From the IMG/VR virus record IMGVR_UViG_3300031758_000002: a DNA stretch of 64,000 nt. One strand, given 5' to 3'. This document shows, piece by piece, positions 1,757-40,717 of this stretch (its first letter is position 1; every line of letters begins with the position of its first letter). Position numbers and translations under genes: made by a program. The stretch comes from a virus. Taxonomy: Duplodnaviria; Heunggongvirae; Uroviricota; Caudoviricetes. Below the pieces are notes generated by a model that was not told the DNA's origin, did not search any database, and saw nothing but the letters and a program-made list of their open reading frames with translations.

Positions 1757-2026
1757 TTATTTTGTTAATTCAATTTCTTCGTAAAGATTATTGTTTTCTG
1801 CGGAATTTACTCCATAATATTCTAACACCACATTACAACCACATTCAGAGTTAAACCTTGAGGTATCGGTGATTAAAATTTTATCACCACTAACCTTATG
1901 TGTTACAAAGTCACCTGGACTAAATTTAAACTTTCGTTTGTAATATTCTTCATCACTACAACCACATCCTGTTAGAAATAGGATGGTAACAACTATTATC
2001 ACCATCCCAAATAATCCCTTAACCAT
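1757..2026 (-). CDS. putative lipoprotein (89 aa)
   Basis: N-terminal hydrophobic stretch followed by a LTGCGCS lipobox-like sequence. Confidence 0.45.
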   Translation of the reverse strand: MVKGLFGMVIIVVTILFLTGCGCSDEEYYKRKFKFSPGDFVTHKVSGDKILITDTSRFNSECGCNVVLEYYGVNSAENNNLYEEIELTK

Positions 2027-2976
2027 TATTTATTCAAGTTTAAGAACATTCCTGAATTACCTGCCACCGTTGTTGGTAACTTCCCATCCCACGAATTTGC
2101 TTTCAAATATTCAATATACAACGGTGTTAACCTATCTTGTTTAATCTTGATTGCAAGTGCTGCGGCATTGGCATTAATAACTGTCTCAGCAGAATCCGCT
2201 CTTGCCACCGCAACCTTTCTTTTACCTTCCGCGATTGCTGCGATTGCCTGTTGTTCTGACGCTTCAGCCTGTTGTATCGCCTTTGTCTTTGCGATAATTG
2301 ATTCTTGTAACGCTTCAGGTGGTGTAATATTCGTTCTCAACTGTGAAACATCAAACCATTTTGTCAATCGTTTATTACATTCCGCCACGATTGCCGCCTC
2401 AAATTGTTGACGATTACTAAAGATACTATCAACTTCCCATTTATTTGCTTCATCATTAACTGCTCCAACGATTGCATTTTTCAACCATCCTTGTTCAATA
2501 TCTTTAACCTCAAGACGAAGATTAACGAACATATCACCAATCGCATCAGGTTTTAATGAGTAGTTAAATGATGGTTTAATTGTTGCTGAGAATCCACCTT
2601 TTGTAATTACCACCTGATCATCATACTCAATATGTTGTTGGTAAGTTGGGAACTCAAGAACTTGTTTAAACCAAGTATTATACATAACCCACCCTGTTGT
2701 ATATTGGTAATTTTGTACACCTCTGTTGTCACCAGTTAAGTTTACAATAATACCCTTATGTCCCGCATCAATTCTTTCAACCGCAAATGGTTGGAATAAC
2801 GATACAAGAGTTCCAAAGACAAAAATACCAAGTGGTTTAAATAACCACGCCGCATTAAACTTTTCTCTATTATCTCCCCATCTGTCTGTACTTGTTACAT
2901 ACATATTACCTCTTGTTTTCATTGCGAATACTACCGCCGCAATCAAACACACTACAAAAATTACTGTACTAATCAT
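2026..2976 (-). CDS. SPFH/band-7 (prohibitin/HflK-like) membrane protein
   Basis: N-terminal TM helix, then a band-7 core and an Ala/Glu/Gln-rich coiled coil (QQAEASEQQAIAAIAEGKRKVAVARADSAE) typical of HflK/C and stomatin. Locally GC-richer DNA. Confidence 0.65.
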   Translation of the reverse strand: MISTVIFVVCLIAAVVFAMKTRGNMYVTSTDRWGDNREKFNAAWLFKPLGIFVFGTLVSLFQPFAVERIDAGHKGIIVNLTGDNRGVQNYQYTTGWVMYNTWFKQVLEFPTYQQHIEYDDQVVITKGGFSATIKPSFNYSLKPDAIGDMFVNLRLEVKDIEQGWLKNAIVGAVNDEANKWEVDSIFSNRQQFEAAIVAECNKRLTKWFDVSQLRTNITPPEALQESIIAKTKAIQQAEASEQQAIAAIAEGKRKVAVARADSAETVINANAAALAIKIKQDRLTPLYIEYLKANSWDGKLPTTVAGNSGMFLNLNK

Positions 2977-3212: not shown

Positions 3213-3842
3213 TTATCCAAATGTTTGGATCTTTGCATTCACCTCAACTAAATCCGTCCAAGTACCTAAGTATGTTACCGCCCTTACTTTTCTATTATCA
3301 ATCCAAACATATTCTTGATTATCACTAATTCTTGGTTTGTCCATAATTAATTGATGAAATTTGAATCCATGTTCCCAAAGCCATTTTAATGTAACCACTC
3401 TATCCTTTTCCTCCCTTGCGGTAAAAAAAGTAATGGTGTGTCCTTCTTCCGCCCATTTATTAATCTGTTCCAATGATCCCTGAATAACTTTTGCAGTTGG
3501 GTATAGGTGAGAGTCCTCGTTCTTAATGTCATCACAAATTGTTCCATCAATGTCAATCAAGAATATTTTTGATTTAGGTTTGTTTGGTATGTTTATTTTC
3601 CCAACAAACTTATGATACCCTTTTTGAGTTTTTTCATCATAGTAACAAACAGGTATTACATCAAAATCTACTTCCATTAACTTGGGTGGATTTGTTTCTT
3701 TAACCCATTCTTTACTTTCATCAGATAAACTAAATGATTGTCCATTAACATCCCACTCTTTTGTTGTCTTTAACCACCACCCACCTGGTGATGTATATCC
3801 GTTATCTTCAAATGGTTCGTAATATTTTAAATAACCTTTCAT
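3213..3842 (-). CDS. HAD-superfamily phosphatase (nucleotidase / PNK-phosphatase-like) with N-terminal extension
   Basis: HAD motif I FLIDIDGTICDD, motif II FFTAR, a Lys motif (MDKPR) and a terminal acidic motif (WIDN). Confidence 0.6.
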   Translation of the reverse strand: MKGYLKYYEPFEDNGYTSPGGWWLKTTKEWDVNGQSFSLSDESKEWVKETNPPKLMEVDFDVIPVCYYDEKTQKGYHKFVGKINIPNKPKSKIFLIDIDGTICDDIKNEDSHLYPTAKVIQGSLEQINKWAEEGHTITFFTAREEKDRVVTLKWLWEHGFKFHQLIMDKPRISDNQEYVWIDNRKVRAVTYLGTWTDLVEVNAKIQTFG

Positions 3843-4102
3843 ATTAATCCTAACTCCTTTCTATACTTTTTCATTTTATCTCTTGCAATTTGAAACTCGT
3901 CATTATCACAAGCCTTATGTCCTTTCATAATTGCCTCCAATATTTTTGACTCATTATCACAGATATAAGAAATTTTTTCAACATTACTTAACCCATCATC
4001 CAAAGTTTCATCAAACCAATACTTAACATTTTCTACTTTATTACCGTTAAGTTTTTCAAGTAATTCAAGTACTTCTGAATATGTAAAATTATCCTTAATC
4101 AC
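3839..4102 (-). CDS. hypothetical protein (87 aa)
   Basis: ORF with 4-bp overlap. Confidence 0.3.
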   Translation of the reverse strand: MIKDNFTYSEVLELLEKLNGNKVENVKYWFDETLDDGLSNVEKISYICDNESKILEAIMKGHKACDNDEFQIARDKMKKYRKELGLI

Positions 4103-4231
4103 AATTAATAATAAATGTATTTATCATGATCCCTATCTTCTTCTTTTTCTTTAATTGGTTTTTTAACGCTTTCAATCACAATTTTAATTGTCTCTGGAAA
4201 TAGTTGATTCATTCCCACACCAAAACAAACT

Positions 4232-4543
4232 TCAATGACATTTTTTTCCTTCATAACTGTTTAATGTTTTTAGATTCCATTTTATTTCATATTCTTTTTT
4301 TTTATATGTTCCCATATATGTTGGGACGATAATAGTATCTTTAATATCTAAACAGAAGGTGTCTGCGGGTATTTCCAAACAAAGCCAACCATCACTACTA
4401 TGGTAGTGCCAATGATCGGGTTGTTGTACTAATGTATCAGACCATTCAACAGGATACTTTTCAAGATAATAAACATCAACATATGTTGTTCTACACCCAA
4501 TAAGAATAGAGATTAATCCAACAATAAACAATAGTTTTTTCAT
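4232..4543 (-). CDS. putative lipoprotein (103 aa)
   Basis: Signal peptide MKKLLFIVGLISILIGC with a lipobox Cys. Confidence 0.45.
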   Translation of the reverse strand: MKKLLFIVGLISILIGCRTTYVDVYYLEKYPVEWSDTLVQQPDHWHYHSSDGWLCLEIPADTFCLDIKDTIIVPTYMGTYKKKEYEIKWNLKTLNSYEGKKCH

Positions 4544-4797
4544 TATTTAATTATCGCTTTTTCCAATGTGTTAATTAATACCTGAACTTTTTCCATCTTA
4601 TAAAATCTAATAGATGGATCAGTATTAAATATTTCAACATACCATTCTTCACCTACCAATTCTCCTTTGGATGGTGTAATAAGTGTTAATCCATTTACCA
4701 CATCATACGCATAGTAATAATCAGGATTTTCTTGTCCTTCAAAATCAATAATTTCTTCACTTTTAAACCCTAAAAGTATTAGTTCTCTCTCAGTCAT
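4543..4797 (-). CDS. hypothetical protein (84 aa)
   Basis: ORF, 1-bp overlap. Confidence 0.3.
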   Translation of the reverse strand: MTERELILLGFKSEEIIDFEGQENPDYYYAYDVVNGLTLITPSKGELVGEEWYVEIFNTDPSIRFYKMEKVQVLINTLEKAIIK

Positions 4798-4899
4798 TTT
4801 TTCTAAGTTTTTTTTTAATTCGTTTAATAATTATTCCTTTAATGTAATGATCCAATTCAAACATATAAGGAATGTGCATTCTCATCCAATCCCAAAGTC

Positions 4900-5139
4900 T
4901 TAACATTTTTCTTCAATTTTAATTCTGTCGTGTTTATTTTTAAATTGATATAATATCCTTACCAAATCTTCAATAGAATCAAATGCCCATCTTTGAGTTT
5001 CAATAACAAAGAAGTCTCCACCACCACCATTCTGTGTTTTAACTGTAATGAATTGATATTCATTTGAACAACAATCGTTGTCCTGAGTAAATGTGATTTT
5101 AAATTCTTGATCAATAATAGAAGGTTTATCTGACATCAT
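4900..5139 (-). CDS. hypothetical protein (79 aa)
   Basis: ORF. Confidence 0.3.
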   Translation of the reverse strand: MMSDKPSIIDQEFKITFTQDNDCCSNEYQFITVKTQNGGGGDFFVIETQRWAFDSIEDLVRILYQFKNKHDRIKIEEKC

Positions 5140-5398
5140 TCATAATTTTATCTGTGAATACATTTTCATTAACATCGTGTTTACCAAGGTTATAAGAAAC
5201 ATAAGTCTTGTCCTCATAATAAACACGAATCATAAGGAACCCTAATTCTGAAATATACACTGTTTCAATTTCACCAACACCCTTTGGTGTGTTAATCTTT
5301 GGATTCTTCATTTCACAAATATAATAAAAATTTTTAATTCTCAAACATATCTTCACACCAAATTGGTGTTTTTTCTCCAACATAGGATCCACTAACAT
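5126..5398 (-). CDS. hypothetical protein (90 aa)
   Basis: ORF. Confidence 0.3.
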   Translation of the reverse strand: MLVDPMLEKKHQFGVKICLRIKNFYYICEMKNPKINTPKGVGEIETVYISELGFLMIRVYYEDKTYVSYNLGKHDVNENVFTDKIMNDVR

Positions 5399-5585
5399 TA
5401 AAACTGAAATGTTCTAAGGCATCTTCCAAAGTCATATCTTCTTCGGTGATTAAGATTTCAATACATTTTCTCACAGAATAAATTAATCTCATTGATTTTT
5501 CATCAATTCCAATTACCGCATCGTCAAATCCATCCGCCTTCAGGATTTCCTCATCTTGATAATACTCCACAATTTCTTCTAACAT
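5334..5585 (-). CDS. hypothetical acidic protein (83 aa)
   Basis: ORF. Overlaps the previous one, so the start is uncertain. Confidence 0.25.
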   Translation of the reverse strand: MLEEIVEYYQDEEILKADGFDDAVIGIDEKSMRLIYSVRKCIEILITEEDMTLEDALEHFSFNVSGSYVGEKTPIWCEDMFEN

Positions 5586-5698
5586 AATACTTAATCTTTA
5601 CAACAAACATCAAAAATTATTTGTGCGGTAATAACTATAATGGTTAAACCAATTACAGATAAATGCATAACTTGTTCAATAATACTTAACATACTTCT

Positions 5699-6052
5699 TT
5701 ATATTACTATTTTATTATCAACTAAAATAGGTTGTGGTAATCCATCTCCCCATCCAACATTTTCAAATGCTTTCGGGTTAGTGAATTCATCTTCCATCTC
5801 CAATTCAAACTCTCCACCACTACTTAGTATCTCTGTTAATTTTTTTAATGAATTCTCATCATTAGGTACTTGATTAGGTGTTGCCATTATTTTTAGACAT
5901 TCACTTAATTCTTTTCTTGTCTCACCACCAACACAAGTTTTAATCTCATTGTTTGGGGTTAGATATAAATCATTTTTCATTATTGGTTGTTTTGCAACCA
6001 CATACGGTAACTCATTTGGATCAACCAATACCAACTTTACACTTTTTCTCAT
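5699..6052 (-). CDS. hypothetical protein (117 aa)
   Basis: ORF. Confidence 0.35.
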   Translation of the reverse strand: MRKSVKLVLVDPNELPYVVAKQPIMKNDLYLTPNNEIKTCVGGETRKELSECLKIMATPNQVPNDENSLKKLTEILSSGGEFELEMEDEFTNPKAFENVGWGDGLPQPILVDNKIVI

Positions 6053-7203: not shown

Positions 7204-7785
7204 TTAATCTTTCAAATATTTTAATATCTTTTCTTTAACCCCAGATTGTTTAATACCTTCGTTTGATTTTGGTGTCAATACAAAATTATCTATCGCCCAC
7301 TCATCTTTCCAGGGTTCACCAATTTTACCCATATTCAAGTCATCAATAGAGACCCAATGAGTTACTTCAGGGTGATCATGAAGATATTGTCTAATTTCAA
7401 TTGTTCGTGTTTGTTCTAAATCCCATCGTGGGGACCAAATAAATAAATTACCATGAACTGTACACGTACCTATGTTTGGTGTTAATGATATTGGTTTTTT
7501 ACTTATTCCGTGTAACTCATAGTACTCACCAAGTTCTTCTAGTGTAGCGTGTAGTTTCCAATCTGAAGATACCACAATCTCAGCTCCTGTTTCTTCAAGA
7601 ATTTCATTAAGAACTTTAACCGACTTAGTGTCAAAATCATCAAAACGAAAAGATACTGGAGCGTCTTTTTTTTCCTTACTACTATCAGGGTTTTCACTAC
7701 GATAGTTTGCCCATTTTTTCGTTCGTCCTCCCCAATTATTGGAAAGACAAATAACTCCATCGTGATCCAAAAATATAACTTTCAT
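7204..7785 (-). CDS. HAD-like phosphatase
   Basis: Motif I VIFLDHDGVI and a late acidic motif WVSIDDLN. Confidence 0.55.
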   Translation of the reverse strand: MKVIFLDHDGVICLSNNWGGRTKKWANYRSENPDSSKEKKDAPVSFRFDDFDTKSVKVLNEILEETGAEIVVSSDWKLHATLEELGEYYELHGISKKPISLTPNIGTCTVHGNLFIWSPRWDLEQTRTIEIRQYLHDHPEVTHWVSIDDLNMGKIGEPWKDEWAIDNFVLTPKSNEGIKQSGVKEKILKYLKD

Positions 7786-8235: not shown

Positions 8236-8265
8236 ACAAACCCCCAACTTACATTGGGGGTTTTA
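8236..8265 (-). terminator. rho-independent terminator (CCCCCAA-loop-TTGGGGG), bidirectional-looking
   Basis: Plus strand reads AAAACAAACCCCCAACTTACATTGGGGGTTTTAT, downstream of the gene ending at 8445. Confidence 0.6.
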
Positions 8266-8444
8266 TATAGTTTGTTTCAAAGATTAAAATAGGTCAAAAA
8301 AAGAGTTTTAAGCTTTAATAAAATGCAGGTTGAGTATTTGAATGTTCAATTTTAGTGGACTATTTCTATATCATAATCAATTATCAAATCAGCCGATCGT
8401 ATAGTTAGAAAAACCAATACTTTTAACCTTATCCCCAAACCATA

Positions 8445-8879
8445 TTAAATCTCAGTGGTTGCATTGAAAATATCCAACTTATCTTGGATGTTCTCAATTC
8501 TATCCTCCATTGACTTAACCATTTCATTTCTTGTTACCAATGAAATTTCAGATGTCATCACCAATTCACTCTCCATTCGGTATCTATCTTTGTTTGATTT
8601 ACCTTCGGTACAATCCATTTTCTTAAGAGCCTGAATCATTGACTTCAATTCTGACATATAAAAAATGTCCCCCAACACCGGAGTGTTTGCCTTATGGATT
8701 TTAGATTTTAATTCAGCCAACTCTAAAGTGTCTTTACTGATTTGGTTGAATAATACTTCCGTGCTATATGGTCGTTGGTTACCTACTTCAACAGAGTTGT
8801 ACTGTTGCATTAATTTTGTATTCTCACCAATACTTTTGACGAGTTTATTTTTTGCTTTTAACGCTTGTTTAATTGTCAT
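8445..8879 (-). CDS. hypothetical protein (144 aa)
   Basis: ORF. Confidence 0.4.
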   Translation of the reverse strand: MTIKQALKAKNKLVKSIGENTKLMQQYNSVEVGNQRPYSTEVLFNQISKDTLELAELKSKIHKANTPVLGDIFYMSELKSMIQALKKMDCTEGKSNKDRYRMESELVMTSEISLVTRNEMVKSMEDRIENIQDKLDIFNATTEI

Positions 8880-10178: not shown

Positions 10179-10424
10179 TTATCTTAATACAATTGGATGA
10201 ATAATAAAAAATATTTCTTCTGTTCTACCATCAACCTTAACAACTCTATCGTTTTTCAACTCAAGATCTGAAGTCCCATATTCTTCTTTAAGTCGATTCA
10301 TCTGAGATTTGAGTTCTTTTTTTGCATCATTTTCAAATTTAAAATAACCCACATATGAATCACATCCGTGTCCTTTTTCATACACACCAAAAATAATTTG
10401 TCTTGTTTCTATTCTATTTTTCAT
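10179..10424 (-). CDS. hypothetical protein (81 aa)
   Basis: ORF. Confidence 0.3.
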   Translation of the reverse strand: MKNRIETRQIIFGVYEKGHGCDSYVGYFKFENDAKKELKSQMNRLKEEYGTSDLELKNDRVVKVDGRTEEIFFIIHPIVLR

Positions 10425-10833
10425 TTCTTCTTTCTCTTTTTACTATTGATAAAACCTCACTTAAATCCCAATATGTACTTTTTATTCCACCTCTATCATC
10501 AAGGAATATGTTTGCATATATCTTACCATTCATCCCATATGGTTTATCCCACTCAGGATGCATTTGATTTACCCCATGAACTTCAATACCCAACTTTTCA
10601 ACTTGTTCTTTTGCGGTTTCCAATTGTCGTTCACTTCTTGCAGTATTAATTAAAAATATAATACCTTCTTTTTGACATTCCAAAATCAAGTCAACAACTT
10701 TTTGACAATGTTCTTTTAATTCTTCATTATATGGAATTATTGTGTCATCAAGATCACAACCAATAATCAATTTACCATTTTTTAACCATTCAGTTGCAAG
10801 TCGGTTAATGAAGAAATTTGCGTGATGTCTCAT
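10414..10833 (-). CDS. HAD-like phosphatase (139 aa)
   Basis: Motif I IIGCDLDDTII, INTARS (motif II) and IFLDDRGG (motif IV). Confidence 0.55.
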   Translation of the reverse strand: MRHHANFFINRLATEWLKNGKLIIGCDLDDTIIPYNEELKEHCQKVVDLILECQKEGIIFLINTARSERQLETAKEQVEKLGIEVHGVNQMHPEWDKPYGMNGKIYANIFLDDRGGIKSTYWDLSEVLSIVKRERRNEK

Positions 10834-11101: not shown

Positions 11102-11140
11102 AATTTCTTTTTTTAATTATATGAAAAAATGATGACTCCA

Positions 11141-12271
11141 TCAATGGGAGTCACCAACATTATTTTTCTCCCCATATATTAAATAATCAGGATTGATAAC
11201 CTTTGCAACTTTATGACGATCACCAGTCACAGATTTAACAACGATACCTTCGTGAGGAACTTTGGTTCCTTTTATAAAATTACCGAAGACATATTTATCT
11301 TGTTCTTCTTTACTCCAAGTTCCTTCATATAATACTTCAACTTGTGGGAGTTCCAAACAATCAAAATGAACGGTTTCTTCAAGGTGTGGTTGATAAACAC
11401 CATCAACTTCAACATCAAAACCAACAAACTTTATTTCCTCCAAACCATATTCATAGTTTTTTTGGATTCCTTTACCATAGATTTCCCCATAGATAGTAAG
11501 TCCTTGTTCCAAAGATTCAGGGTAATATGTATCCTTAACATGATCCCAAAGTTTTTTTCGTATGTCATATTTGTTGGCAACTTCTCTCCACACATCAGTA
11601 TCGTAGAATCCTTGAGAATCAGATCCTTTCTCCACATTATGAGAACCATACACATATTCAAACTCAACCCACTCATTACCGAAGAACTTTTTCACTCTAT
11701 CCCACAAAGAAAGTTTTTTCTTTCTAACTATTCCAAATCTGGCATTAGTTCCGTGTATTTTACGGGTGATAACAACCTCATCTTCTTCGGTGAACATATC
11801 AGGAACATTCTTCATGTTTGGGAATTTGTGATAGATATGGAAGTTTGGATTTTGGTGGTATCTAACTTTCTTACCTCCACCCAAAGTAACCATTTTAACC
11901 GGTGGTTCGTATTTGGTTATTCCAAGTATTTCCATCATATCATCACCTTCATTAACATTGTTCACCAATGATTTTGGTGCCAAGTACTTGAATGGTATTA
12001 ACAAACATTCGGAATAAAATCCACGAAGTTTTACGGTTCTAACTCGTTGTCCTTTACGAAGGTAGTTAGTCACTTCCATCAAGTCAGACAATGCTTGTGG
12101 TATTACCGCATCAGTGGTTGCAACAACAACTTTATCTCCTTCTTGGTATTCACCTTTTTTGGTTATCGCCTGCCATCCACCAACAAGTACAAGTTCTATG
12201 TTGTCAGCATTTGGTATTTCAACTACTGAACCTATTTTTCCAACATATGCTACGCTATTTTGATTTTCCAT
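11141..12271 (-). CDS. ATP-dependent RNA ligase, Rnl2/Rnl5-like, with N-terminal extension (OB fold by analogy to Rnl5)
   Basis: Nucleotidyltransferase motif I ITRKIHGTNARFG (KxHGxN as in T4 Rnl2 EKIHGTN) at about residue 172. An N-terminal module of about 130 aa precedes it. Total 376 aa, similar to DraRnl/NgrRnl. Confidence 0.7.
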   Translation of the reverse strand: MENQNSVAYVGKIGSVVEIPNADNIELVLVGGWQAITKKGEYQEGDKVVVATTDAVIPQALSDLMEVTNYLRKGQRVRTVKLRGFYSECLLIPFKYLAPKSLVNNVNEGDDMMEILGITKYEPPVKMVTLGGGKKVRYHQNPNFHIYHKFPNMKNVPDMFTEEDEVVITRKIHGTNARFGIVRKKKLSLWDRVKKFFGNEWVEFEYVYGSHNVEKGSDSQGFYDTDVWREVANKYDIRKKLWDHVKDTYYPESLEQGLTIYGEIYGKGIQKNYEYGLEEIKFVGFDVEVDGVYQPHLEETVHFDCLELPQVEVLYEGTWSKEEQDKYVFGNFIKGTKVPHEGIVVKSVTGDRHKVAKVINPDYLIYGEKNNVGDSH

Positions 12272-13802: not shown

Positions 13803-13860
13803 TTTACAAAAGTAATCATTTTATATTTACCAAACAATATTTTTGGATATTTATTTTAAT

Positions 13861-14310
13861 ATGAACCTACAAGAATCCATAAGAAGAATATTAAGGGAAG
13901 AAACCATAAAAGATAAATATAAAAAAGAATATATTAATTTTCATGGTAACATGGAAGGGTTTGATGACAATTGGGATAATCTGTTTAATAAAGATTTTAA
14001 TGATGGTGGTTTGATGAATATACCTGAATATATTGAATTGAGTAGATTAGTTAATATTATTGGGGAATTTAAAAAGGATAAAAATATACATTGGATAAGA
14101 ACCTCTGATGAATATTTATTTTACGATACGGATTGGTTGTTTTTATCCGATGTTAAAATAAATGATAACGCTAAAATAATCAGAATAAAAACACACAAAT
14201 CAAATATTAATTTAGATCAAACAATAATTCAAAATTTAACTTTTAATTATGAAAAAGAGATTACCTTGAAAAACTTGGATTTAGAAAATTATGAAATAAT
14301 AAAATATTAA
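13861..14310 (+). CDS. hypothetical protein, member of the N-terminal LQE-IRRILREE propeptide family (paralog of 14313..14639)
   Basis: ATGAACCTACAAGAA start shared with the next gene. N-terminus MNLQESIRRILREE. Confidence 0.45.
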   Translation: MNLQESIRRILREETIKDKYKKEYINFHGNMEGFDDNWDNLFNKDFNDGGLMNIPEYIELSRLVNIIGEFKKDKNIHWIRTSDEYLFYDTDWLFLSDVKINDNAKIIRIKTHKSNINLDQTIIQNLTFNYEKEITLKNLDLENYEIIKY

Positions 14311-14312
14311 AT

Positions 14313-14639
14313 ATGAACCTACAAGAAAACATAAGAAGAATATTGAGGGAAGAATTATTGAATGAAACAAAGTTCTTCCGTAGAAGAATTGATTTAGATG
14401 AGGTTAAGAAGTTACTTTCAATTAATGCACAACAAGTGTATTACGAAACTGAAAGTTATAGAGGTTTTAAATATGACTTAACTTTAAGAGCGGTAGAATC
14501 AATTATGTGGAATAATTATGAACTTGGGTGGGAGGATTTACCAGAACAAGAGGAAATAGACTTTGTGACAGAAGTTTCTGATATGCTTGAGGACACGATT
14601 AAACAGTTATACAAATTTTATCATAATAAAAGATTCTAA
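14313..14639 (+). CDS. hypothetical protein, paralog with N-terminal MNLQENIRRILREE
   Basis: First 14 aa nearly identical to the upstream gene. The rest is divergent. Confidence 0.45.
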   Translation: MNLQENIRRILREELLNETKFFRRRIDLDEVKKLLSINAQQVYYETESYRGFKYDLTLRAVESIMWNNYELGWEDLPEQEEIDFVTEVSDMLEDTIKQLYKFYHNKRF

Positions 14640-14641
14640 AA

Positions 14642-15052
14642 TTACATCATTAACAAATCTGTTGTGTTCAAATCTTCACCATCAATGACAAAACAAGCAT
14701 TTTGTAGTTGGTGAACATATCTCATAGGTTTAATATCACTAAAACCCTGAATTCCATATAAACCTTTATAAAGGTGTGTTAGTGTAATACTTTCAGTTTC
14801 CCACCAATGAAATTCACCAATACCAGGTGCGGTATCTGACATTTCAACAAAATGAAGTAAGTCTAGTATTTTTTCAGTTATCTCAACGGGTTTGAAGTCA
14901 TCAATGTGTATCGGTAATCCATCTTCCGTTCCTATGTATAGTCCGTTAAATGCGATTGCTCTAACTTCTGTTGGTGTTCCAAATAGTGGGTGGGTAACAA
15001 TACTACCCACCCTTAATTCATTCAGTTTCATACAATCCGTTTTTTTGATCAT
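14642..15052 (-). CDS. hypothetical protein (136 aa)
   Basis: ORF. Confidence 0.35.
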   Translation of the reverse strand: MIKKTDCMKLNELRVGSIVTHPLFGTPTEVRAIAFNGLYIGTEDGLPIHIDDFKPVEITEKILDLLHFVEMSDTAPGIGEFHWWETESITLTHLYKGLYGIQGFSDIKPMRYVHQLQNACFVIDGEDLNTTDLLMM

Positions 15053-15344
15053 CTTCCATTATTTTTCTTAAAAGAGACTCTCTATTATATTTTCTAATCA
15101 ATTTGAATATCTCGGTGATATCTGTAAACTCGGATGGTGGTGAGTCATTTCTACCTGGAAGAAACATCACAGTAAATCCGTGATTTGCTTCAAACTTTTC
15201 AGTTACTCTTATACCACATATCTCATTAATATAAATCCACGGGAAATTTCCTGAAAGTTTAACTTCAATACCAATCTTGTTCAATCTATCAACAAACACC
15301 TTTAACTTATCGGTGCTCAATTTTGTATTATCTATTGTTTCCAT
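15018..15344 (-). CDS. hypothetical protein (108 aa)
   Basis: ORF. Confidence 0.3.
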   Translation of the reverse strand: METIDNTKLSTDKLKVFVDRLNKIGIEVKLSGNFPWIYINEICGIRVTEKFEANHGFTVMFLPGRNDSPPSEFTDITEIFKLIRKYNRESLLRKIMEDDQKNGLYETE

Positions 15345-15348
15345 AACA

Positions 15349-15552
15349 TTAATATTGTTTAATTACATCCCCTCTTAAATAAATGTTATCAAATGACACA
15401 CCATTTACAGATTCAACACCAAGATGAACTTGTCTACCTTCAATTTTGGTAATCACACCAGAATCTTCTACAGATCCTGTAATTCTATTAACTACCTTAA
15501 CATAGTCACCCACTTTGATGTCCCTTCCGTTTTTATCTGTCGTTTTTTCCAT
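15349..15552 (-). CDS. hypothetical protein (67 aa)
   Basis: ORF. Confidence 0.3.
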   Translation of the reverse strand: MEKTTDKNGRDIKVGDYVKVVNRITGSVEDSGVITKIEGRQVHLGVESVNGVSFDNIYLRGDVIKQY

Positions 15553-15743
15553 ACCACAAATATAAGAATTATTTTTTAATATGACAAAAAATAAACAACA
15601 TTAAAACGATTGTTGATCATCGGACGTTATATGAAATATTTAAAAAATTTCATTTGCGTTTAAAATAATAATCTCTTATCAGTATTTGAAATATATTACC
15701 TAAACAAAATCCTATAAATCCTATTAAAATTAGTAGTTCCATA

Positions 15744-15956
15744 TTATTTTACATTATCAATTCTTTTTTTAAGAATTTTTTTCGCCTCTTCAAGGGTTGG
15801 GAAGTAAGATAACAATTTCCAATGTCCTCCCACATTTATATACGGATACCAATAAGTGGATTTATTAGAAACCCCCCTTTCAATTTTAACATCGTATTGT
15901 CCGTATTTACCTTCGTATACGTGTCCAGCAACATCTTTATTTAACTTTAATACCAT
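15744..15956 (-). CDS. hypothetical protein (70 aa)
   Basis: ORF. Confidence 0.3.
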   Translation of the reverse strand: MVLKLNKDVAGHVYEGKYGQYDVKIERGVSNKSTYWYPYINVGGHWKLLSYFPTLEEAKKILKKRIDNVK

Positions 15957-17188: not shown

Positions 17189-17226
17189 TTTACAAATTTA
17201 TTAATAAATATCTGATTAAACAAAAA

Positions 17227-17256
17227 ACCCCACTCTTATTTGAAGTGGGGTTTGTA
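17227..17256 (-). terminator. rho-independent terminator (CCCCAC-loop-GTGGGG)
   Basis: AAAAAACCCCACTCTTATTTGAAGTGGGGTTTG, downstream of the gene ending at 17261. Confidence 0.6.
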
Positions 17257-17629: not shown

Positions 17630-17674
17630 ATTATGAATAATAAAAAATCCTCCACAAAAGTGAAGGATTATATT

Positions 17675-18925
17675 TTACCGTTTAAATTTAAACTCTTTTT
17701 CTATTTTTCTTTTTCCGTATTTTTTCTCCATTATTTGTTGGTGTAACTCCCAATTAAGAATTGATTCGTTGGTTTGTTCTTTTTCGTCAGGAATAAGTGA
17801 ATATATTTTTACAAGTCGTTTAATTAATTTTGTTGCAACATAGTTAAATCTTTCACATTCATCAACAAAGAACTGACTTTCTCTATTACGATATTTGGCA
17901 AGTTGATTTAAATATTTATGTCTAACTTTTTCCAATCCTTCATCGTTCTCACGCTTAACACCCATACCTAACATTCTCATAAAATTAGCCATTTCACTAT
18001 CAACACTATCCGTCATTTTATCAAAAATATCTCTTTTAGCACTAATAAGATTAATATAAACTATATCCATAACTACCTTTATTTTTTCCTCTTCAGTCAT
18101 ATTTTCATAATCCACATCTGCGTGTTCTAATAAACCATCCACACGATCCATTTGATTATGTAATTCTTCCATAAAATGTTCAAAACTAAAATCTCTAATT
18201 TCTTTTAGTTCTTTAACAACACTATCATTTTCAAAAAATTCTCTAAACTTTTCTCTTGTTACTCCAGTTAATTTCATTCTTGTTGCCATTTCAGTTGGTC
18301 TAACAAGATTTTCAACATATTGAATGAAATAACTATATCTCATAAATTCACTAATAACCGGAATTCCGAAGTTTAACCCTTGACTTGCATATGCTTGATA
18401 ATCAGCATCTTTCCCTATCAAGTCAGTTGTCTTTTTTTGTTTATCAAACTTATGTTTAATTTCGTGAGCAATTACAGATATTAATTGAACTCTATCATTA
18501 GTAAAGTAATTATAAGGGTCTTGGGAATCCCAATCATCCCCATTTGATGCAAAATGTAATTGTAACTCAATTGTGTTATCCTGTTTATGAACCTTCATTA
18601 GTAGTTTTCTATCAAAATTAAATTGATTTGCAACACCGGCTGATATCATAGTGAATGGTCCATCATATTCATCCATTTCGTGAACTTGAACTGCTAACTC
18701 TAATTCGTGTATTTTATAATCAGATATTGTTAAATCTAAATTATCTTCAGTAAATGTTTGTGTTGTGTCGTAATCATCCATACCTTTTAATAGGTTTAAT
18801 ATGATTTCATATAGTTCTTCAGCCGATTCAATGATTCCTTCAGGAACTCCAACGGCTTCATTCAGTAAGAGATTATTTACAATAATCTCAAGTTGATTTT
18901 CAGTAATGATTAAATTTTTCTTCAT
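17675..18925 (-). CDS. HExxH zinc-metallopeptidase-like protein carrying the family N-terminal motif (MKKNLIITENQLEIIVNNLL)
   Basis: VIAHEIKHKF HExxH motif. The N-terminus is homologous to the MKKVIRLTESDL family. 416 aa. Confidence 0.45.
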   Translation of the reverse strand: MKKNLIITENQLEIIVNNLLLNEAVGVPEGIIESAEELYEIILNLLKGMDDYDTTQTFTEDNLDLTISDYKIHELELAVQVHEMDEYDGPFTMISAGVANQFNFDRKLLMKVHKQDNTIELQLHFASNGDDWDSQDPYNYFTNDRVQLISVIAHEIKHKFDKQKKTTDLIGKDADYQAYASQGLNFGIPVISEFMRYSYFIQYVENLVRPTEMATRMKLTGVTREKFREFFENDSVVKELKEIRDFSFEHFMEELHNQMDRVDGLLEHADVDYENMTEEEKIKVVMDIVYINLISAKRDIFDKMTDSVDSEMANFMRMLGMGVKRENDEGLEKVRHKYLNQLAKYRNRESQFFVDECERFNYVATKLIKRLVKIYSLIPDEKEQTNESILNWELHQQIMEKKYGKRKIEKEFKFKR

Positions 18926-18951
18926 ACATATAAATATAAAGGAGTTGTGAT

Positions 18952-19605
18952 TTAACCCACAACTCCAACCAAACCATCCAAATGATGATCACCACTCATG
19001 TCAGAACCAACAGGTATTTTACCCATAATTCTAATGATATCATCAATATTATATGGATCCATACCGTTACCATCAACACCAACATCCATTCTTTTACCAT
19101 TACCAAATTTACGGTGTTCAGGTAAGTGAACATGACCGTGTAAATGAATAACACCTTTATTCAATCCGTTCCAACTTTGTAATGGGTAATGACAAAGTAC
19201 AAAGTCTTTCCCATTGATGTTCACCTCCAAATAGTGTTGTACACTCAGGAATCTCCCTTGTACATAATCACGGTTGTTCTCAATATGATGATCATGATTT
19301 CCAAGTACGAGGTGAATGTTGTGACAAACCAATCTTTCAAGGAAGATTCCAATATTATCAAATCCTCCGAATGAAACATCACCCAACATAATTAAGGTAT
19401 CATCTTGTCCAACAACACTATTAATACCGTCAACCAATCGTTGGTTCATTTGTTCAATAGTTTGAAAATCACGAGTAGAATCTACCGGTACTTCACCATC
19501 TTGTGTTCTCCAATTTGTCACACCACGACATATATTTTTGTGTCCATAGTGAGTATCACTTGTGATGAACACTTTTCCTGTCGTTAATATTTTTTTAAAT
19601 CCCAT
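18952..19605 (-). CDS. calcineurin-like metallophosphoesterase
   Basis: MPP motifs ITSDTHYGH, LGDVSFGG and LGNHDHH, plus the later His motifs. Confidence 0.7.
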   Translation of the reverse strand: MGFKKILTTGKVFITSDTHYGHKNICRGVTNWRTQDGEVPVDSTRDFQTIEQMNQRLVDGINSVVGQDDTLIMLGDVSFGGFDNIGIFLERLVCHNIHLVLGNHDHHIENNRDYVQGRFLSVQHYLEVNINGKDFVLCHYPLQSWNGLNKGVIHLHGHVHLPEHRKFGNGKRMDVGVDGNGMDPYNIDDIIRIMGKIPVGSDMSGDHHLDGLVGVVG

Positions 19606-19633: not shown

Positions 19634-20224
19634 ATGAAAAAGTTTTTATTATCCTTATTTTTTATTTTCCCTTTTATTTTATTATCTCAAAAACCATTAA
19701 GAGATAGTGTAATCATTAAAAGTGATATTTTTACCGTTGTTTATTCTGAGAAATTAGAACAACCTTTATCTGTGAGTTATACCGTGGATTGTCCGTCAGG
19801 TAATGCATCAAGATCTGGTATGGATTTCTTCACTTGTGATTCTGTTAAAACATCTGACTCAAAAGATTATGAAAATAACATTTGGGACAAGGGACATATG
19901 GCACCTGCCGCAGATTTTAATTGTGATAAGATTATGTTAAAGAAAACATTTAGTTACCTTAACTGTACATTACAACAACAAGATCTCAATAGAACCACTT
20001 GGCGTTTATTAGAAGCGTATGAAAGAGAATTGGCATTAAAGTATGAGGTGTCTGTTATTGTAATTTGTGTATTTTCAAAAAAATCCACAATACTCAAATC
20101 AGGCGCCACGGTTCCTGATGGATATTATAAGAAAATAACTTATAATGGTAAAACAGAAACTTATTACTTTAAAAATGAAAAACCTTCAACAACCGATTTT
20201 AAAAAGTTTTTGGTTAAAGGTTAA
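19634..20224 (+). CDS. secreted DNA/RNA non-specific endonuclease (Serratia NucA / EndoG family)
   Basis: Signal peptide MKKFLLSLFFIFPFILLSQ. Catalytic-region motif NIWDKGHMAPAADF (DRGH-type). Start set at the internal Met after antisense overlap with the neighbouring gene. Confidence 0.65.
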   Translation: MKKFLLSLFFIFPFILLSQKPLRDSVIIKSDIFTVVYSEKLEQPLSVSYTVDCPSGNASRSGMDFFTCDSVKTSDSKDYENNIWDKGHMAPAADFNCDKIMLKKTFSYLNCTLQQQDLNRTTWRLLEAYERELALKYEVSVIVICVFSKKSTILKSGATVPDGYYKKITYNGKTETYYFKNEKPSTTDFKKFLVKG

Positions 20225-20603
20225 TTTCAAAACGATTACGCATATTTTCTAAAACTTGTTCGGGAACATTATGTTCATTTACACCTCCGTGTCTATTCTC
20301 AACTACAATAGTGAATACTTTATACCCATGTTCTTTCGCCATATCAATGTATGGTTGCATCTCCCACTCTTGTGTGAATGTATTTGAAACCACAATCTTG
20401 GGATATTCCAATATCATATCAGATTTAACAAAACTCTGACACCATTGATGCGCATCTTTTATTTTAGTGAAATCAAAATTATACACACCATTCTCATCAA
20501 TGAAGAACATATCCGCTTCATAGTGTTGTCCACCTAAAGTTTTTGCAAATGTTGATTTACCACTACCTGGTATTCCTCTTACGATATATAATGTATTTTC
20601 CAT
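20214..20603 (-). CDS. P-loop kinase (AAA_33 / polynucleotide-kinase-like)
   Basis: Walker A VRGIPGSGKSTFAK at the N-terminus, like the T4 Pnk kinase domain. 129 aa. Confidence 0.6.
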   Translation of the reverse strand: MENTLYIVRGIPGSGKSTFAKTLGGQHYEADMFFIDENGVYNFDFTKIKDAHQWCQSFVKSDMILEYPKIVVSNTFTQEWEMQPYIDMAKEHGYKVFTIVVENRHGGVNEHNVPEQVLENMRNRFEINL

Positions 20604-20637
20604 ACCACAAAGATATGAAAAAGAATTAAATAAAAAA

Positions 20638-20660
20638 AGGAACCTAAGTTCCTTTTATTT
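20638..20660 (-). terminator. rho-independent terminator (GGAAC-loop-GTTCC)
   Basis: AAAAAAAGGAACCTAAGTTCCTTTTATTTT, downstream of the gene ending at 20660. Confidence 0.55.
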
Positions 20661-22870: not shown

Positions 22871-23299
22871 TTACAAAAGTGTTAAAATTAATCTAAATAA
22901 TGGGTCTTTATGGTCATCAATTGGTAAATCCATGAAATTAAAGTACCCACATTCGCTATGTTCGTGTCCATCTTTAGCCATATCCAAATCAGGATATATC
23001 TCTACATCTGATTGGTAATAGTAGATATACATCATCCCTTTAACTTCACCATTTTTAGTATATGTATTAAAAGTACCAACTAATCTTATGTCATTAATCT
23101 CATTAGTTAAATCAATATTAGTTTCCTCATAAAACTCCCTAATTGCAGTTTCTTTAGGTTTTTCACCATACTCAACACCACCACCAGGAACCGACCATAT
23201 ATTAGGTGAAGACTGATCAGGACTTCTTTTACAAAGTAAAAATTTATTACCACACTTGACAAGTATTCCCGAAAATCTTTTTAGTTTTCTATTAGCCAT
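22871..23299 (-). CDS. Nudix hydrolase
   Basis: Nudix box GGGVEYGEKPKETAIREFYEETN. Start placed at the internal MANRKLKRF Met; the longer ORF extends to 23374 through hydrophobic low-complexity sequence. Confidence 0.7.
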   Translation of the reverse strand: MANRKLKRFSGILVKCGNKFLLCKRSPDQSSPNIWSVPGGGVEYGEKPKETAIREFYEETNIDLTNEINDIRLVGTFNTYTKNGEVKGMMYIYYYQSDVEIYPDLDMAKDGHEHSECGYFNFMDLPIDDHKDPLFRLILTLL

Positions 23300-23357
23300 T
23301 ATATTTATGTATATGGATATAATAATAAATAACAATTTGTTCAATGTCAAATGTGTA

Positions 23358-23657
23358 ATGACATCAAAAGACACTCAACAAGGTATGATGGGTAAAAAAT
23401 TTGATGATACATTTGATGGAATGTTATTTATAATGAATGATAGTGAACATTCTTTTTGGATGAAGGATTGTATAATTCCTTTGGATATTATCTATATAAG
23501 TAACAATACTATTGTTAAGATACATCATAACTGTGAACCTTGTACTTCTAACCCATGTAAGAGATATCCTGGTAATGGTGATATGATATTAGAAGTTATG
23601 GGCGGAACCTGTGAAGAATATGATATTACAAAAGGAGATAGAGTATACTTTGATTAA
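23358..23657 (+). CDS. DUF192 (COG1430) domain protein
   Basis: GMLFIMNDSEHSFWMKDCIIPLDIIYISNN.IV.I...EPC......YPGNGDMILE matches the DUF192 consensus. Divergent from the Nudix gene. Confidence 0.55.
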   Translation: MTSKDTQQGMMGKKFDDTFDGMLFIMNDSEHSFWMKDCIIPLDIIYISNNTIVKIHHNCEPCTSNPCKRYPGNGDMILEVMGGTCEEYDITKGDRVYFD

Positions 23658-25066
23658 CCTTCTTGAACTTTCTCTTTCAATAATCTAACAAATTCATTCT
23701 GAATCATTTTAGTAAATTTCACATACGCAGCGTCCTCATTTTCAGAACTATATTTGTATTTCCCTTGAGGTGGTCTTTTACTTCTACCCATATAATTTAA
23801 TCCCGAAATGTTAGTTATACATTTATGTCCTCCACTATTTGATTGGATAATGTCCCAAGCAGTTACGGTAACACTATCAAGTAAACTCATCTCTTCATCA
23901 GTTAAATCGGTAAATGATTTTGACATTGCCGTATCAATATCTCTCATAAAATCTTTACCGTCTTTTGATTTGAATTTATCTCCGTATAACGCTCTAAAAT
24001 CTTTATATGTGAACCCAACAGATTCAGGTGTAAATCCTTTTCCTGATTCTGATATCCACTTAATTGTTGATAATGGAATATCCCTATCTTTTAATTGTGA
24101 TTCCCATTTTCCTAATACTTCATCTTTAATCTCACCTAAGTTAACTCCTTTAAGTGCTCTTTCTTTTTTGAATGGGTTACAGGATGCTTGAACCAATCCT
24201 AACGGCCAAGCAATAACTAAGAAGTCGGCATCAGGATTATTTCTAAATGGGGTGTATCTATCATAAGAACCTGGTTTCATCATTGATCCACCACCATATT
24301 GTACAATAATGTTGTCATCAATTTTAACATTAGGATGTGACTTCATCGTTTGGACATACATTTCCTTATTCTTTTCAAGATCTCCAACCTCAGCGTATCC
24401 TTTACTCATCATTTGTCCTCTAATATTATTCAGGATACTCATTAATGATGGATTTGCGGTTAAAACAATTTCTTCAAGAAAACCTGGTTTATTTTTATAT
24501 GCTAATAATAGTTTATTAACAACCAACCCCATTAACATTTTATTTCTTTGTAATGTTTTATCCTTATCTAATTTGAATAGGTAGTTCATCACTTGTTCAG
24601 GTGCGATATCGTGTTTTGCATAATCTGCAGAATCCACAGTTGATATTAATGTAATGTCTTCAGGTGAGAAAATATCTTTAGGTGATATTGTTTGAGATAT
24701 TGTTTCAACATTCGATCTTGATGATCTAAAACTTGTTGATGTTCCTTGTTCAACTCCGGCTTGAGTATCGTGGTGATCGGTATGAATAACAAACATTGGT
24801 TTTCCGTGGGCAAAATCTACCAGTACAGGCATTGTATCACCTTCAGCATCTAATTTCTTAACTGAAAATTCTTTATCCCCGTATTGGATTATTTCGGCAT
24901 CAACAACTTTAATACCATTATTCTCCAAATAGTGTTTCATTGCAAGTGCGGTAGTAACACCATCTAAATCTTGGTGAAAATATATTTTAGCTTTAGGGTA
25001 TCTTTTAGCTAATTTGTTAATATCCCTTAATCCTGATTCTAATATTAAATTTTTTCTCATAACCAT
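23654..25066 (-). CDS. DHH/DHHA1-family phosphoesterase (RecJ/NrnA-like)
   Basis: DHH motifs FHQDLDGV and VIHTDHHD. DHHA1-like GGGH motif in SNSGGHKCI near the C-terminus. 470 aa. Confidence 0.65.
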   Translation of the reverse strand: MVMRKNLILESGLRDINKLAKRYPKAKIYFHQDLDGVTTALAMKHYLENNGIKVVDAEIIQYGDKEFSVKKLDAEGDTMPVLVDFAHGKPMFVIHTDHHDTQAGVEQGTSTSFRSSRSNVETISQTISPKDIFSPEDITLISTVDSADYAKHDIAPEQVMNYLFKLDKDKTLQRNKMLMGLVVNKLLLAYKNKPGFLEEIVLTANPSLMSILNNIRGQMMSKGYAEVGDLEKNKEMYVQTMKSHPNVKIDDNIIVQYGGGSMMKPGSYDRYTPFRNNPDADFLVIAWPLGLVQASCNPFKKERALKGVNLGEIKDEVLGKWESQLKDRDIPLSTIKWISESGKGFTPESVGFTYKDFRALYGDKFKSKDGKDFMRDIDTAMSKSFTDLTDEEMSLLDSVTVTAWDIIQSNSGGHKCITNISGLNYMGRSKRPPQGKYKYSSENEDAAYVKFTKMIQNEFVRLLKEKVQEG

Positions 25067-40540: not shown

Positions 40541-40717
40541 ATGAAACAAGAAGTAGAACAATCAAAAAAAGAAGCAACACAAGTTACAGGATGTAGTCAA
40601 TGTAAAAAAGGTATGAGTAAAACACAATGGGGATTATTAATATTCTCATTATATATGTTTGGTGCCGGAATTTACGGTACCATCCAAATAATTAAAGATG
40701 TAATTTCTTTATTTTAA
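40541..40717 (+). CDS. small membrane protein (58 aa)
   Basis: Not in the track. MKQEVEQSKKEATQVTGCSQCKKGMSKTQWGLLIFSLYMFGAGIYGTIQIIKDVISLF has one TM helix. Confidence 0.3.
   Translation: MKQEVEQSKKEATQVTGCSQCKKGMSKTQWGLLIFSLYMFGAGIYGTIQIIKDVISLF

Follow-up and report, generated by a model that had tools for sequence, protein, structure and literature searches.

An Rnl5-type RNA ligase gene and a conserved kinase-phosphoesterase gene pair in a large uncultured phage, as a putative heal-and-seal repair set

The stretch of DNA analyzed here, which we call the window, comprises 64,000 nucleotides of a Caudoviricetes virus (IMG/VR record IMGVR_UViG_3300031758_000002), and its subject is a gene for an ATP-dependent RNA ligase together with the genes that may prepare RNA ends for it. 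The window has a G+C content of ~31%, and most of its genes lie on the minus strand. An earlier note on this DNA had proposed that the ligase has the architecture of the Rnl5 family (DraRnl/NgrRnl), with an N-terminal OB fold, and that kinase and phosphatase end-healing functions are dispersed across the window. Here we show that the ligase has the domain order and the catalytic residues of the Rnl5 type, and that a kinase and a metallophosphoesterase gene of the same window form a conserved pair that repeatedly occurs in linkage with RNA ligase genes of two families. The features discussed are collected in Table 1.

Table 1. Positions of the features discussed, in window numbering unless another locus is named
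Feature	Position	Strand	Details
Rnl5-type ATP-dependent RNA ligase, 376 amino acids (aa)	11141..12271	-	uninterrupted ATG-to-stop open reading frame (ORF)
Ligase OB N-domain, ~residues 1-128	12271..11888	-	
Ligase nucleotidyltransferase domain, ~residues 143-376	11845..11141	-	
Motif I lysine K171 (codon)	11761..11759	-	
Terminator-like hairpin plus T run, overlapping the ligase stop codon	11130..11156	-	10-bp stem, 5 GC pairs, TTTTTT tail
Stand-alone P-loop kinase, 129 aa, putative polynucleotide 5'-kinase	20214..20603	-	G10-IPGSGKS-T18, D31, E102-NRHG
Metallophosphoesterase, 217 aa, putative 3'-end-healing partner of the kinase	18952..19605	-	PF00149 (Metallophos), E 1.2e-6
HExxH protein, 416 aa, directly downstream of the metallophosphoesterase	17675..18925	-	invariant H154, E155, H158
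Protein X, 324 aa	9200..10174	-	phrog_17056; motif G-TKWCT at residue 165
Secreted DNA/RNA non-specific endonuclease, inserted, splitting the kinase-phosphoesterase pair	19634..20224	+	PF01223, E 7.7e-24
HAD_SAK_2 phosphatase ('Swiss Army Knife' (SAK) RNA-repair family), 193 aa, candidate 3'-phosphatase	7204..7785	-	motif D7-H-D-G-V
Small capless BT0820-like HAD, 139 aa, in a closely spaced run of genes directly following the ligase	10414..10833	-	D27-L-D-D-T
HAD phosphatase, 209 aa, HAD domain ~residues 90-209	3213..3842	-	D97-I-D-G-T
DHH phosphoesterase	23654..25066		DLDG 33-36, D84, DHH 97-99, GGH 412-414, read directly
Terminator-like hairpins at gene ends	20656..20635, 18966..18941, 17669..17646, 17253..17225, 11156..11130, 8263..8238	-	
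DNA methyltransferases (N6/N4 type, D12/Dam type, phrog_67)	27333..28181, 38939..39778, 51974..52885	all -	one 25-kb stretch
Methyltransf_24/DUF3310 protein	28178..29017		
Glutamine-synthetase-like protein	29007..30206	-	auxiliary gene
DnaJ, full (J domain, zinc finger, C-terminal domain)	40714..41643	-	auxiliary gene
Band-7/SPFH membrane protein	2026..2976	-	auxiliary gene
NUDIX hydrolase	22871..23374	-	auxiliary gene
SbcC-like nuclease subunit, primase	in the window		
NAD salvage genes	L005 8046..11057, L010 5399..8112, L008 7615..10102		

The reading frame that had been called an RNA ligase gene is a real one. Pfam recognizes two domains in its product, PF21189 ('PHA02142 OB-fold domain') at residues 8-93 (E 4.6e-14) and PF09414 (RNA_ligase) at residues 164-359 (E 4.2e-14). 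About 128-142 residues precede the nucleotidyltransferase domain, and because PF21189 matches residues 8-93, this N-terminal extension is, judged by its sequence, a recognized domain and not a chance extension. NCBIfam model TIGR02306 (DRB0094 RNA ligase) aligns with the full length of the protein (E 3.6e-40, positions 7-339 of 341) at a score of 137.9 bits, under the equivalog cut-off of 151.15; the label that JGI gives to close homologues is 'RNA ligase (TIGR02306 family)', and in PHROGs the protein matches phrog_968 (RNA ligase, E 3.5e-61). As the score lies under the cut-off, the protein is best described as a divergent, viral (PHA02142-like) branch of Rnl5, whose nucleotidyltransferase domain carries Rnl2-like motif signatures.

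The comparison with solved structures points the same way. A search of the PDB with the single sequence returned NgrRnl alone (E 2.5e-16), its residues 8-129 corresponding to residues 8-127 of the ligase. With a profile built from 34 diverse homologues, drawn from 7,440 cluster representatives at E < 1e-3, NgrRnl was matched at E 1.5e-40, T4 Rnl2 at 1.9e-13 and a 'putative DNA ligase' at 2e-5; in this alignment K170 of NgrRnl falls on K171 of the ligase, motifs III, IIIa, IV and V are covered, and the match reaches residue 338 of the 340 of NgrRnl. An AlphaFold (AF2) model based on the 34-homologue alignment obtained a predicted local distance difference test (pLDDT) score of 89.8 and a predicted template-modelling (pTM) score of 0.85. 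When this model was compared with the PDB using Foldseek, the top 13 matches were all NgrRnl structures, aligned over the whole chain (E ~1e-21, template-modelling (TM) scores 0.69/0.75), followed by Rnl2-family enzymes, which matched over the nucleotidyltransferase domain only (E ~1e-7), and then by Rnl3 and Rnl1. The N-domain alone resembled the OB domains of Trbp111, the MetRS C-domain and PheRS-beta. Four independent sequence libraries (Pfam, NCBIfam, PHROGs and the PDB) and the fold search thus agree, and they bear out the Rnl5 architecture with an N-terminal OB fold that the earlier note had proposed. The same note had named clustering with DNA ligases as an outcome that would speak against it; NgrRnl came first in the searches and DNA ligases far behind, and identity as a DNA ligase could be ruled out (Foldseek E ~1e-3 to 1e-2, against 1e-21 for NgrRnl).

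The catalytic residues can be assigned individually. The KIHGTN motif, previously placed at about residue 172, is indeed present but starts at residue 171, which makes K171 the nucleophile. The further motifs (Ia, III, IIIa, IV and V) are G209-S210 (GSHN), E263 (YGEIYG), FVGFDV at 282-287, E341 (EGIVVK) and K357 (KVAKVI), and K171, E263, E341 and K357 are invariant or nearly so among the 34 homologues. The residues known to be essential in NgrRnl, K170, E227, E312 and K326 (PMC7261155), align with exactly these four. The ATP contacts of the NgrRnl OB domain, D53 and K121, correspond to D54 and K120 of the ligase, both of which are nearly invariant in the family alignment. The chain stops 19 residues past K357, and there is no C-terminal module. 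As a separate observation, two homologues, P0315 (718 aa) and P0282 (864 aa), contain an intein with a LAGLIDADG homing endonuclease directly past motif I (~K171-T175 in window numbering), and a split match of this kind is seen in several further ligase homologues of 710-750 aa.

The kinase and the metallophosphoesterase are the genes of the window most likely to supply ends for such a ligase. The kinase is matched by Pfam family AAA_33 (E 1.5e-11), by phrog_2071 (E 1.9e-43) and by the kinase half of phrog_505, 'polynucleotide kinase' (E 1.3e-6). Its Walker A P-loop, G10-x-x-G-x-G-K16-S, is present, and D31 is invariant and aligns with the Asp of the SSDF segment in the CthPnkp kinase domain (4gp7). 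In T4 Pnk and CthPnkp, a conserved Asp located 15-20 residues past the Walker A motif serves as the general base. When the PDB was searched with a profile, the best matches were a fungal kinase (9d8a, 1.4e-4), CthPnkp (4gp7, 3.3e-4), PSTK, T4 Pnk (1ly1, 2.3e-3) and Pnkp1, and adenylate, gluconate and shikimate kinases ranked lower (E at least 0.08), all of these E-values being weak. The metallophosphoesterase has all five motifs of its superfamily (DxH, GD, GNHD, H, GH) and matches phrog_547 (E 1.1e-46); its sole match in a single-sequence search of the PDB, Aquifex aq_1665 (E 0.027), is not significant.

The setting of these two genes was analyzed in 80 IMG/VR loci that carry kinase homologues (59-80% identity) and that were scanned with purpose-built hidden Markov models. 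A phosphoesterase gene lies within 1.5 kb of the kinase gene in 55 of the 80 loci and within 100 bp in 34. Thirty loci have at least 7 kb of flank on each side; 17 of these contain an RNA ligase gene within 8 kb (10 Rnl5, 7 Rnl1), 8 contain a SAK-type HAD gene, and 5 are without any partner gene. If one ligase gene were placed at random in each genome of at least ~200 kb, ~8% of 16-kb neighbourhoods would hold one; because the 80 loci come from related phages, the observed counts are not independent trials.

The order of the genes varies considerably. It is kinase-phosphoesterase...Rnl5 in the window, and Rnl1-phosphoesterase-kinase or phosphoesterase-kinase-Rnl1 elsewhere. In a relative of the window, L001, whose ligase is 83% identical, the two genes of the pair have 4 nt in common; in the window a 608-bp segment with an endonuclease gene on the opposite strand comes between them, and the gene content between kinase and ligase also differs between the two loci. 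The kinase gene overlaps the start of Rnl5 by 11 nt in L058, with the same overlap of stop-to-stop ORFs in L061, and L062 has a tight string of phosphoesterase, a 72-aa frame, kinase, a second 72-aa frame and Rnl5. In L057, tandem genes for Rnl5 and Rnl1 (3679..4716 and 4732..5793) follow 2 kb downstream of the kinase gene. The dispersal of the end-healing functions is thus largely a peculiarity of the window, in which an inserted nuclease gene splits the pair; in relatives the kinase gene abuts the ligase gene. A NUMOD3 (homing-endonuclease-like) gene was also seen in L057, between the kinase and the two ligases.

Cultured phages show the pair as well. In coliphage RudolfGeigy, vibriophage VPG01 and Pseudomonas phage Amme-3, homologues of the kinase (50-55% identity) adjoin a homologue of the phosphoesterase (~35%) and an Rnl1-type ligase (PF09511) that is unrelated in sequence to the ligase of the window. 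The kinase and the metallophosphoesterase are thus a conserved gene pair, recurrently linked to RNA ligase genes of two families. Because the arrangements vary and the ligase switches between the two families, this argues for a functional linkage rather than inherited synteny alone. Linkage to the kinase as a general property of phage Rnl5 was considered and rejected, since distant Rnl5 phages lack those partners.

Some neighbours of these genes were noted on the way. Genes for NAD salvage, encoding a ribose-phosphate pyrophosphokinase and a nicotinamide phosphoribosyltransferase, stand beside RNA ligase/kinase genes in VPG01, Amme-3 and pf16, which suggests that RNA ligase/kinase genes cluster in counter-defence regions. 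L001 has a cREC_REC (cyclic-phosphate-processing Rec) gene at 8398..8820, 1.2 kb upstream of its Rnl5 gene. A cRec homologue was for that reason sought in the window and none was found; the matching place holds other genes, two of them on the plus strand (13843..14639).

In our view, the ligase probably carries out, though we hold this with some reserve, the sealing step of a heal-and-seal RNA repair pathway in which the kinase and the phosphoesterase heal the ends. By homology with NgrRnl and DraRnl, the ligase would react with ATP, aided by its N-terminal OB domain, to form an adduct of AMP on K171; the AMP would be passed to a 5'-phosphate, after which a 3'-OH/5'-PO4 nick with an RNA 3'-OH strand would be sealed. 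The stand-alone kinase would phosphorylate 5'-OH ends, and the metallophosphoesterase would strip 2',3'-cyclic phosphates or 3'-phosphates, with the SAK HAD as a possible backup. The ends healed in this way would be those left by metal-independent ribonucleases, such as host anti-phage ribotoxins, and they would be made ligatable again. The healing roles are proposed for the two partners because of their genomic linkage and because of the paradigms of T4 Pnkp/Rnl1 and bacterial Pnkp, and it is from these that we infer what the partners do as enzymes, that the substrate is RNA (tRNA or rRNA) and that the purpose is anti-defence. A reversal of anticodon-nuclease damage in the manner of T4, as the earlier note had in mind, may by analogy be that purpose. 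Rnl5 enzymes seal duplex 3'-OH/5'-PO4 nicks only if the 3'-OH strand is RNA, and prefer Mn2+ (PMC4408790; PMC5397189). The combination of a ligase, a polynucleotide kinase and phosphatases is a described scheme of RNA repair in jumbo phages (PMC7824862).

Several points weigh against this reading, besides the relatedness of the 80 loci. DNA ends are also substrates of polynucleotide kinases and phosphatases. The kinase matches polynucleotide kinases of solved structure only weakly (E 1e-4 to 6e-3), and its AF2 model was poor (pLDDT 55, from a shallow alignment of 78-98% identity) and was not used for a fold search. In the window, the ligase gene lies at least 6.7 kb from those of the kinase and the phosphoesterase. 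It should also be noted that terminator-like hairpins are enriched on the minus strand (13 found, compared to 4.8 +/- 2.2 expected) and include sites right after the ligase gene and right before the kinase gene; the ligase, kinase and phosphoesterase genes are apparently in separate transcription units bounded by such hairpins. Scans of the whole window for tRNA genes and Rfam RNA elements found none. The distant Rnl5 phages MiaZeal, pf16 and MW202803 have no such kinase or phosphoesterase gene within 5 kb of the ligase gene. The characterized Rnl5 enzymes require a nicked duplex, not a broken single-stranded loop, and the sole physiological phenotype known for an Rnl5 enzyme is that of a Deinococcus knockout lacking DraRnl, which is sensitive to ionizing radiation and from which its authors infer a role in DNA repair (PMC5397189).

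This last observation leads to an alternative that we regard as rather unlikely but that deserves to be taken seriously, namely that the set acts in DNA-end repair or replication: the ligase would seal nicks in phage DNA with 3'-ribonucleotides (for example, unremoved primers or RNA patches), and the kinase and phosphoesterase would heal DNA that host or phage nucleases had broken to leave 5'-OH/3'-phosphate ends. Whether Rnl5 and Rnl2 act on DNA, RNA or both has been left undetermined (PMC5397189), and Rnl5 accepts DNA on the 5'-phosphate side (PMC4408790; PMC5397189). The surroundings would suit such a role, in that the window is a region of replication and DNA metabolism (SbcC-like protein, primase and three DNA methyltransferases), the Rnl5 gene of mycobacteriophage MiaZeal lies among DnaB-like and DnaQ-like genes, and a gene for a non-specific nuclease stands inside the kinase-phosphoesterase pair. 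However, in other phages the same pair is joined with Rnl1-type ligases. The T4 Rnl1 family is dedicated to the repair of tRNA loops, which counts against a role on DNA, as do the equivalent slots occupied by Rnl5 and Rnl1, which stand in tandem in L057. Moreover, RudolfGeigy (an rV5-like phage) and Amme-3 have a separate ATP-dependent DNA ligase gene close by, and a HAD of the SAK family of RNA repair is co-conserved.

All of the other phosphatases listed in the earlier note, that is, three HAD proteins and a DHH protein, lie where it had placed them, as do the kinase and the metallophosphoesterase, and all match the superfamilies it had named. The SAK HAD fits RNA repair; it matches PF18143 (E 8.6e-21; 75.2 bits, cut-off 27.5) over profile positions 1-136 of 139 and is 89% identical in L001. 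Its homologues lie within 8 kb of the kinase gene in 9 of the 80 loci, and 8 of those 9 are without a metallophosphoesterase gene. The SAK family has been described as the stand-alone phosphatase of RNA repair in jumbo phages (PMC7824862). The HAD gene just downstream of the ligase gene is in a string with spacings of 39, 1, -11 and 4 nt and is also found downstream of Rnl5 in L001 and L015; its product matches Hydrolase_3 (E 2.4e-5), phrog_1238 (E 4.6e-22) and PDB entry 2obb (E 6.6e-5), with NF046079 far under its cut-off. The third HAD protein, that of gene 3213..3842, matches LNS2 and Acid_phosphat_B in Pfam, HAD_PNKP at E 6.7e-4, under the cut-off, and in PHROGs phrog_415 and the phosphatase half of phrog_505 'polynucleotide kinase' (E 8.6e-12 and 4.5e-9); a tblastn search against phage Pnkp genes gave only E ~1e-3. 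Both proteins are small capless HADs akin to the uncharacterized BT0820 of Bacteroides, and the likeness of their sequences to Pnkp phosphatases is weak. The DHH protein matches Pfam DHH weakly (E 4.4e-4; 21 bits, cut-off 28.1) and TIGR00644 recJ at E 0.0036, its DHH/DHHA1 motifs being legible nonetheless; no link of its gene to the ligase gene was detected, and its region is not shared with L001. No significant match was obtained when the PDB was searched with the single sequences of the SAK HAD, the 3213 HAD and the DHH protein.

The proposal that these enzymes are end-healing partners of the ligase thus holds in part: the kinase and the metallophosphoesterase qualify as a conserved pair with recurrent linkage to RNA ligases and the SAK HAD fits, but the two BT0820-like HADs cannot be assigned and the DHH gene is unlinked. 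The unusual redundancy that had been attributed to the set does not stand, since RNA-repair sets with multiple phosphatases have already been described in jumbo phages, where ligases, a polynucleotide kinase, PNK-HAD and SAK HAD phosphatases and calcineurin-like, Nudix and DHH enzymes are typical (PMC7824862).

A further possibility is that the genes have no common pathway and are independent auxiliary genes, for nucleotide metabolism or the degradation of signalling nucleotides, that share a variable early region of a large phage. The two BT0820-like HADs and the NUDIX and DHH proteins carry no specific polynucleotide signature, and DHH, calcineurin-like and Nudix enzymes of jumbo phages have been proposed to attack signalling nucleotides (PMC7824862). 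The different gene content between kinase and ligase in the window and L001 and the apparently separate transcription of the units would also agree with it. What makes this improbable is that the linkage survives several rearranged orders, two unrelated ligase families and overlapping frames, and that it extends to distantly related cultured phages of Escherichia, Vibrio and Pseudomonas, which would be unexpected for unrelated genes.

Two further proteins travel with the repair genes. Homologues of the HExxH protein (38-80% identity) follow right after the phosphoesterase gene in 36 loci, including the window and L001, and share a conserved ENxVR..E segment. Pfam, PHROGs, NCBIfam and the PDB gave no match for it, a profile search of the PDB returning only designed helical proteins; it may be a zincin-like enzyme or an accessory component tied to the kinase-phosphoesterase pair. 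Protein X has homologues in 17 loci (window included), either between kinase and phosphoesterase or just downstream of Rnl5; L033 (8390..9310 and 14884..15936) and L037 have two copies, one in each place, and others occur in L047, L089 and elsewhere. Only PHROGs of unknown function match protein X. These two conserved companions allow one to speculate, with little confidence, about a larger, undescribed module for repair or counter-defence, composed of Rnl5, the kinase, the metallophosphoesterase, the HExxH protein and X, in which the tRNA-binding-like OB domain would target the ligase to broken tRNA. If this were true, the Rnl5 family, the role of which is still called uncharted, would gain a defined job in reversing the damage done by host ribotoxins.

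The endonuclease whose gene splits the pair in the window is outside the repair set. It has a signal-peptide-like start, MKKFLLSLFFIFPFILLSQ, and a DKGHMAP motif, and the 3' end of its gene overlaps the 3' end of the kinase gene by 11 nt. It shares 54% identity with the product of a NUC1-like gene in Flavobacterium phage immuto. In all 80 related loci its gene is absent from the place between kinase and phosphoesterase, and a search of bacterial genomes for the source of the inserted gene found no relative.

No near-identical DNA was found for the region among 50,697 phage records, which therefore include no annotated close relative, yet more than 100 metagenomic proteins, some of them from contigs of 200-290 kb, are 80-99% identical to the ligase; the sequences thus indicate that the source is an abundant uncultured lineage of large phages. 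Like the ligase, the kinase has many close metagenomic relatives. The best matches of the ligase and the SbcC-like protein in phage databases are unannotated 'uncultured phage' records of 735 kb. The phosphoesterase is closest to that of phage immuto (50%), followed by those of Cellulophaga phages, and since both the phosphoesterase and the inserted nuclease resemble immuto genes, there is a hint of a Bacteroidota host.

Taken as a whole, the locus is an ordinary, well-supported phage RNA-repair kit, of the sort to be expected in a large phage. Rnl5 ligases occur widely among bacteria, phages, archaea and protists; according to the literature, what they act on in the cell has yet to be established and could be DNA, RNA or both (PMC5397189). 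Phage homologues have been on record from the time of the family's definition (PMC4408790; PMC5397189; PMC7261155). That Rnl1 and Rnl5 alternate next to a single conserved kinase-phosphoesterase pair was not found stated in the papers on Rnl5 and on jumbo phages that were consulted, although it may have been described before. The pair is wired to Rnl1, to Rnl5 and once to both. This genome context argues that viral Rnl5 works downstream of end healing in a heal-and-seal pathway, in the same slot as Rnl1, the tRNA-repair ligase. For annotation purposes, it is reasonable to label phrog_2071 (the 129-aa 'ATPase') and phrog_547 (the 'phosphoesterase') as putative RNA end-healing enzymes.

Among the known systems, the ligase is closest to NgrRnl of Naegleria gruberi (PDB 5COT) and DraRnl of Deinococcus radiodurans (DR_B0094, TIGR02306), which likewise consist of an OB fold followed by a nucleotidyltransferase domain, with no C-terminal module. 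NgrRnl is the best match in sequence (profile E 1.5e-40) as well as in structure, and the motif I lysine, the glutamates of motifs III and IV, the lysine of motif V and D54 and K120 of the OB domain are shared with the family. However, the ligase is only ~23% identical to NgrRnl, has ~30 extra residues between motifs I and III, and reads KIHGTN in motif I, where the characterized enzymes have KLDG; Asp172 of NgrRnl, which is a His in the ligase of the window, is dispensable (PMC7261155). Unlike NgrRnl and DraRnl, it is viral, and its gene is linked to genes for end healing. Rnl2 ranks second among the families in the sequence as well as the fold searches. The motif I of T4 Rnl2 is the identical KIHGTN, its motifs III and IIIa are similar (GE(I/F)xGxGIQKN and F.FD), and the same F-x-x-Y-x-x-x-x-N pattern is present at the start of its nucleotidyltransferase domain. 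Rnl2 and Rnl5 are both nick-sealing ligases (PMC4408790). Yet Rnl2 ends in a helical domain and lacks an N-terminal OB domain, whereas the reverse is true for the ligase of the window, which matches TIGR02307 at only E 3.8e-4 and, in Foldseek, aligns with Rnl2 over the nucleotidyltransferase domain only (TM ~0.4).

The logic of the proposed set is the same as that of T4 Pnkp and Rnl1, in that a 5'-kinase, a 3'-phosphatase and an ATP-dependent RNA ligase are encoded by separate phage genes, and the kinase of the window matches the kinase half of PHROG 505 (Pnkp-type), the 3213 HAD its phosphatase half. It differs from T4 in that the kinase is a stand-alone protein without HAD fusion, its conserved neighbour is a metallophosphoesterase, and the ligase is Rnl5 and not Rnl1. 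In the Pnkp-Hen1 system of Clostridium thermocellum, CthPnkp combines a P-loop kinase, a metallophosphoesterase and a ligase in the same order as the genes of the window, and its kinase domain (4gp7) is one of the solved structures that the kinase of the window matches best. In contrast to this single polypeptide, the window has three separate genes, its phosphoesterase has no detectable sequence match to the solved CthPnkp phosphatase, and its ligase is Rnl5, that of CthPnkp being Rnl4 (PMC7261155). No Hen1-like methyltransferase was detected with Pfam or PHROGs among the ~60 ORFs scanned in the window (small ORFs were partly left out); the methyltransferases found in these scans were of the DNA N6/N4, D12 and Methyltransf_24 types. 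The closest counterparts in cultured phages are the cassettes of RudolfGeigy (rV5-like), VPG01 (T5-like) and Amme-3, in which the orthologous kinase and phosphoesterase genes also stand beside an RNA ligase gene; there, a ligase of the T4 Rnl1 type adjoins the pair, whereas in the window the ligase is Rnl5 and is located 6.7 kb away.

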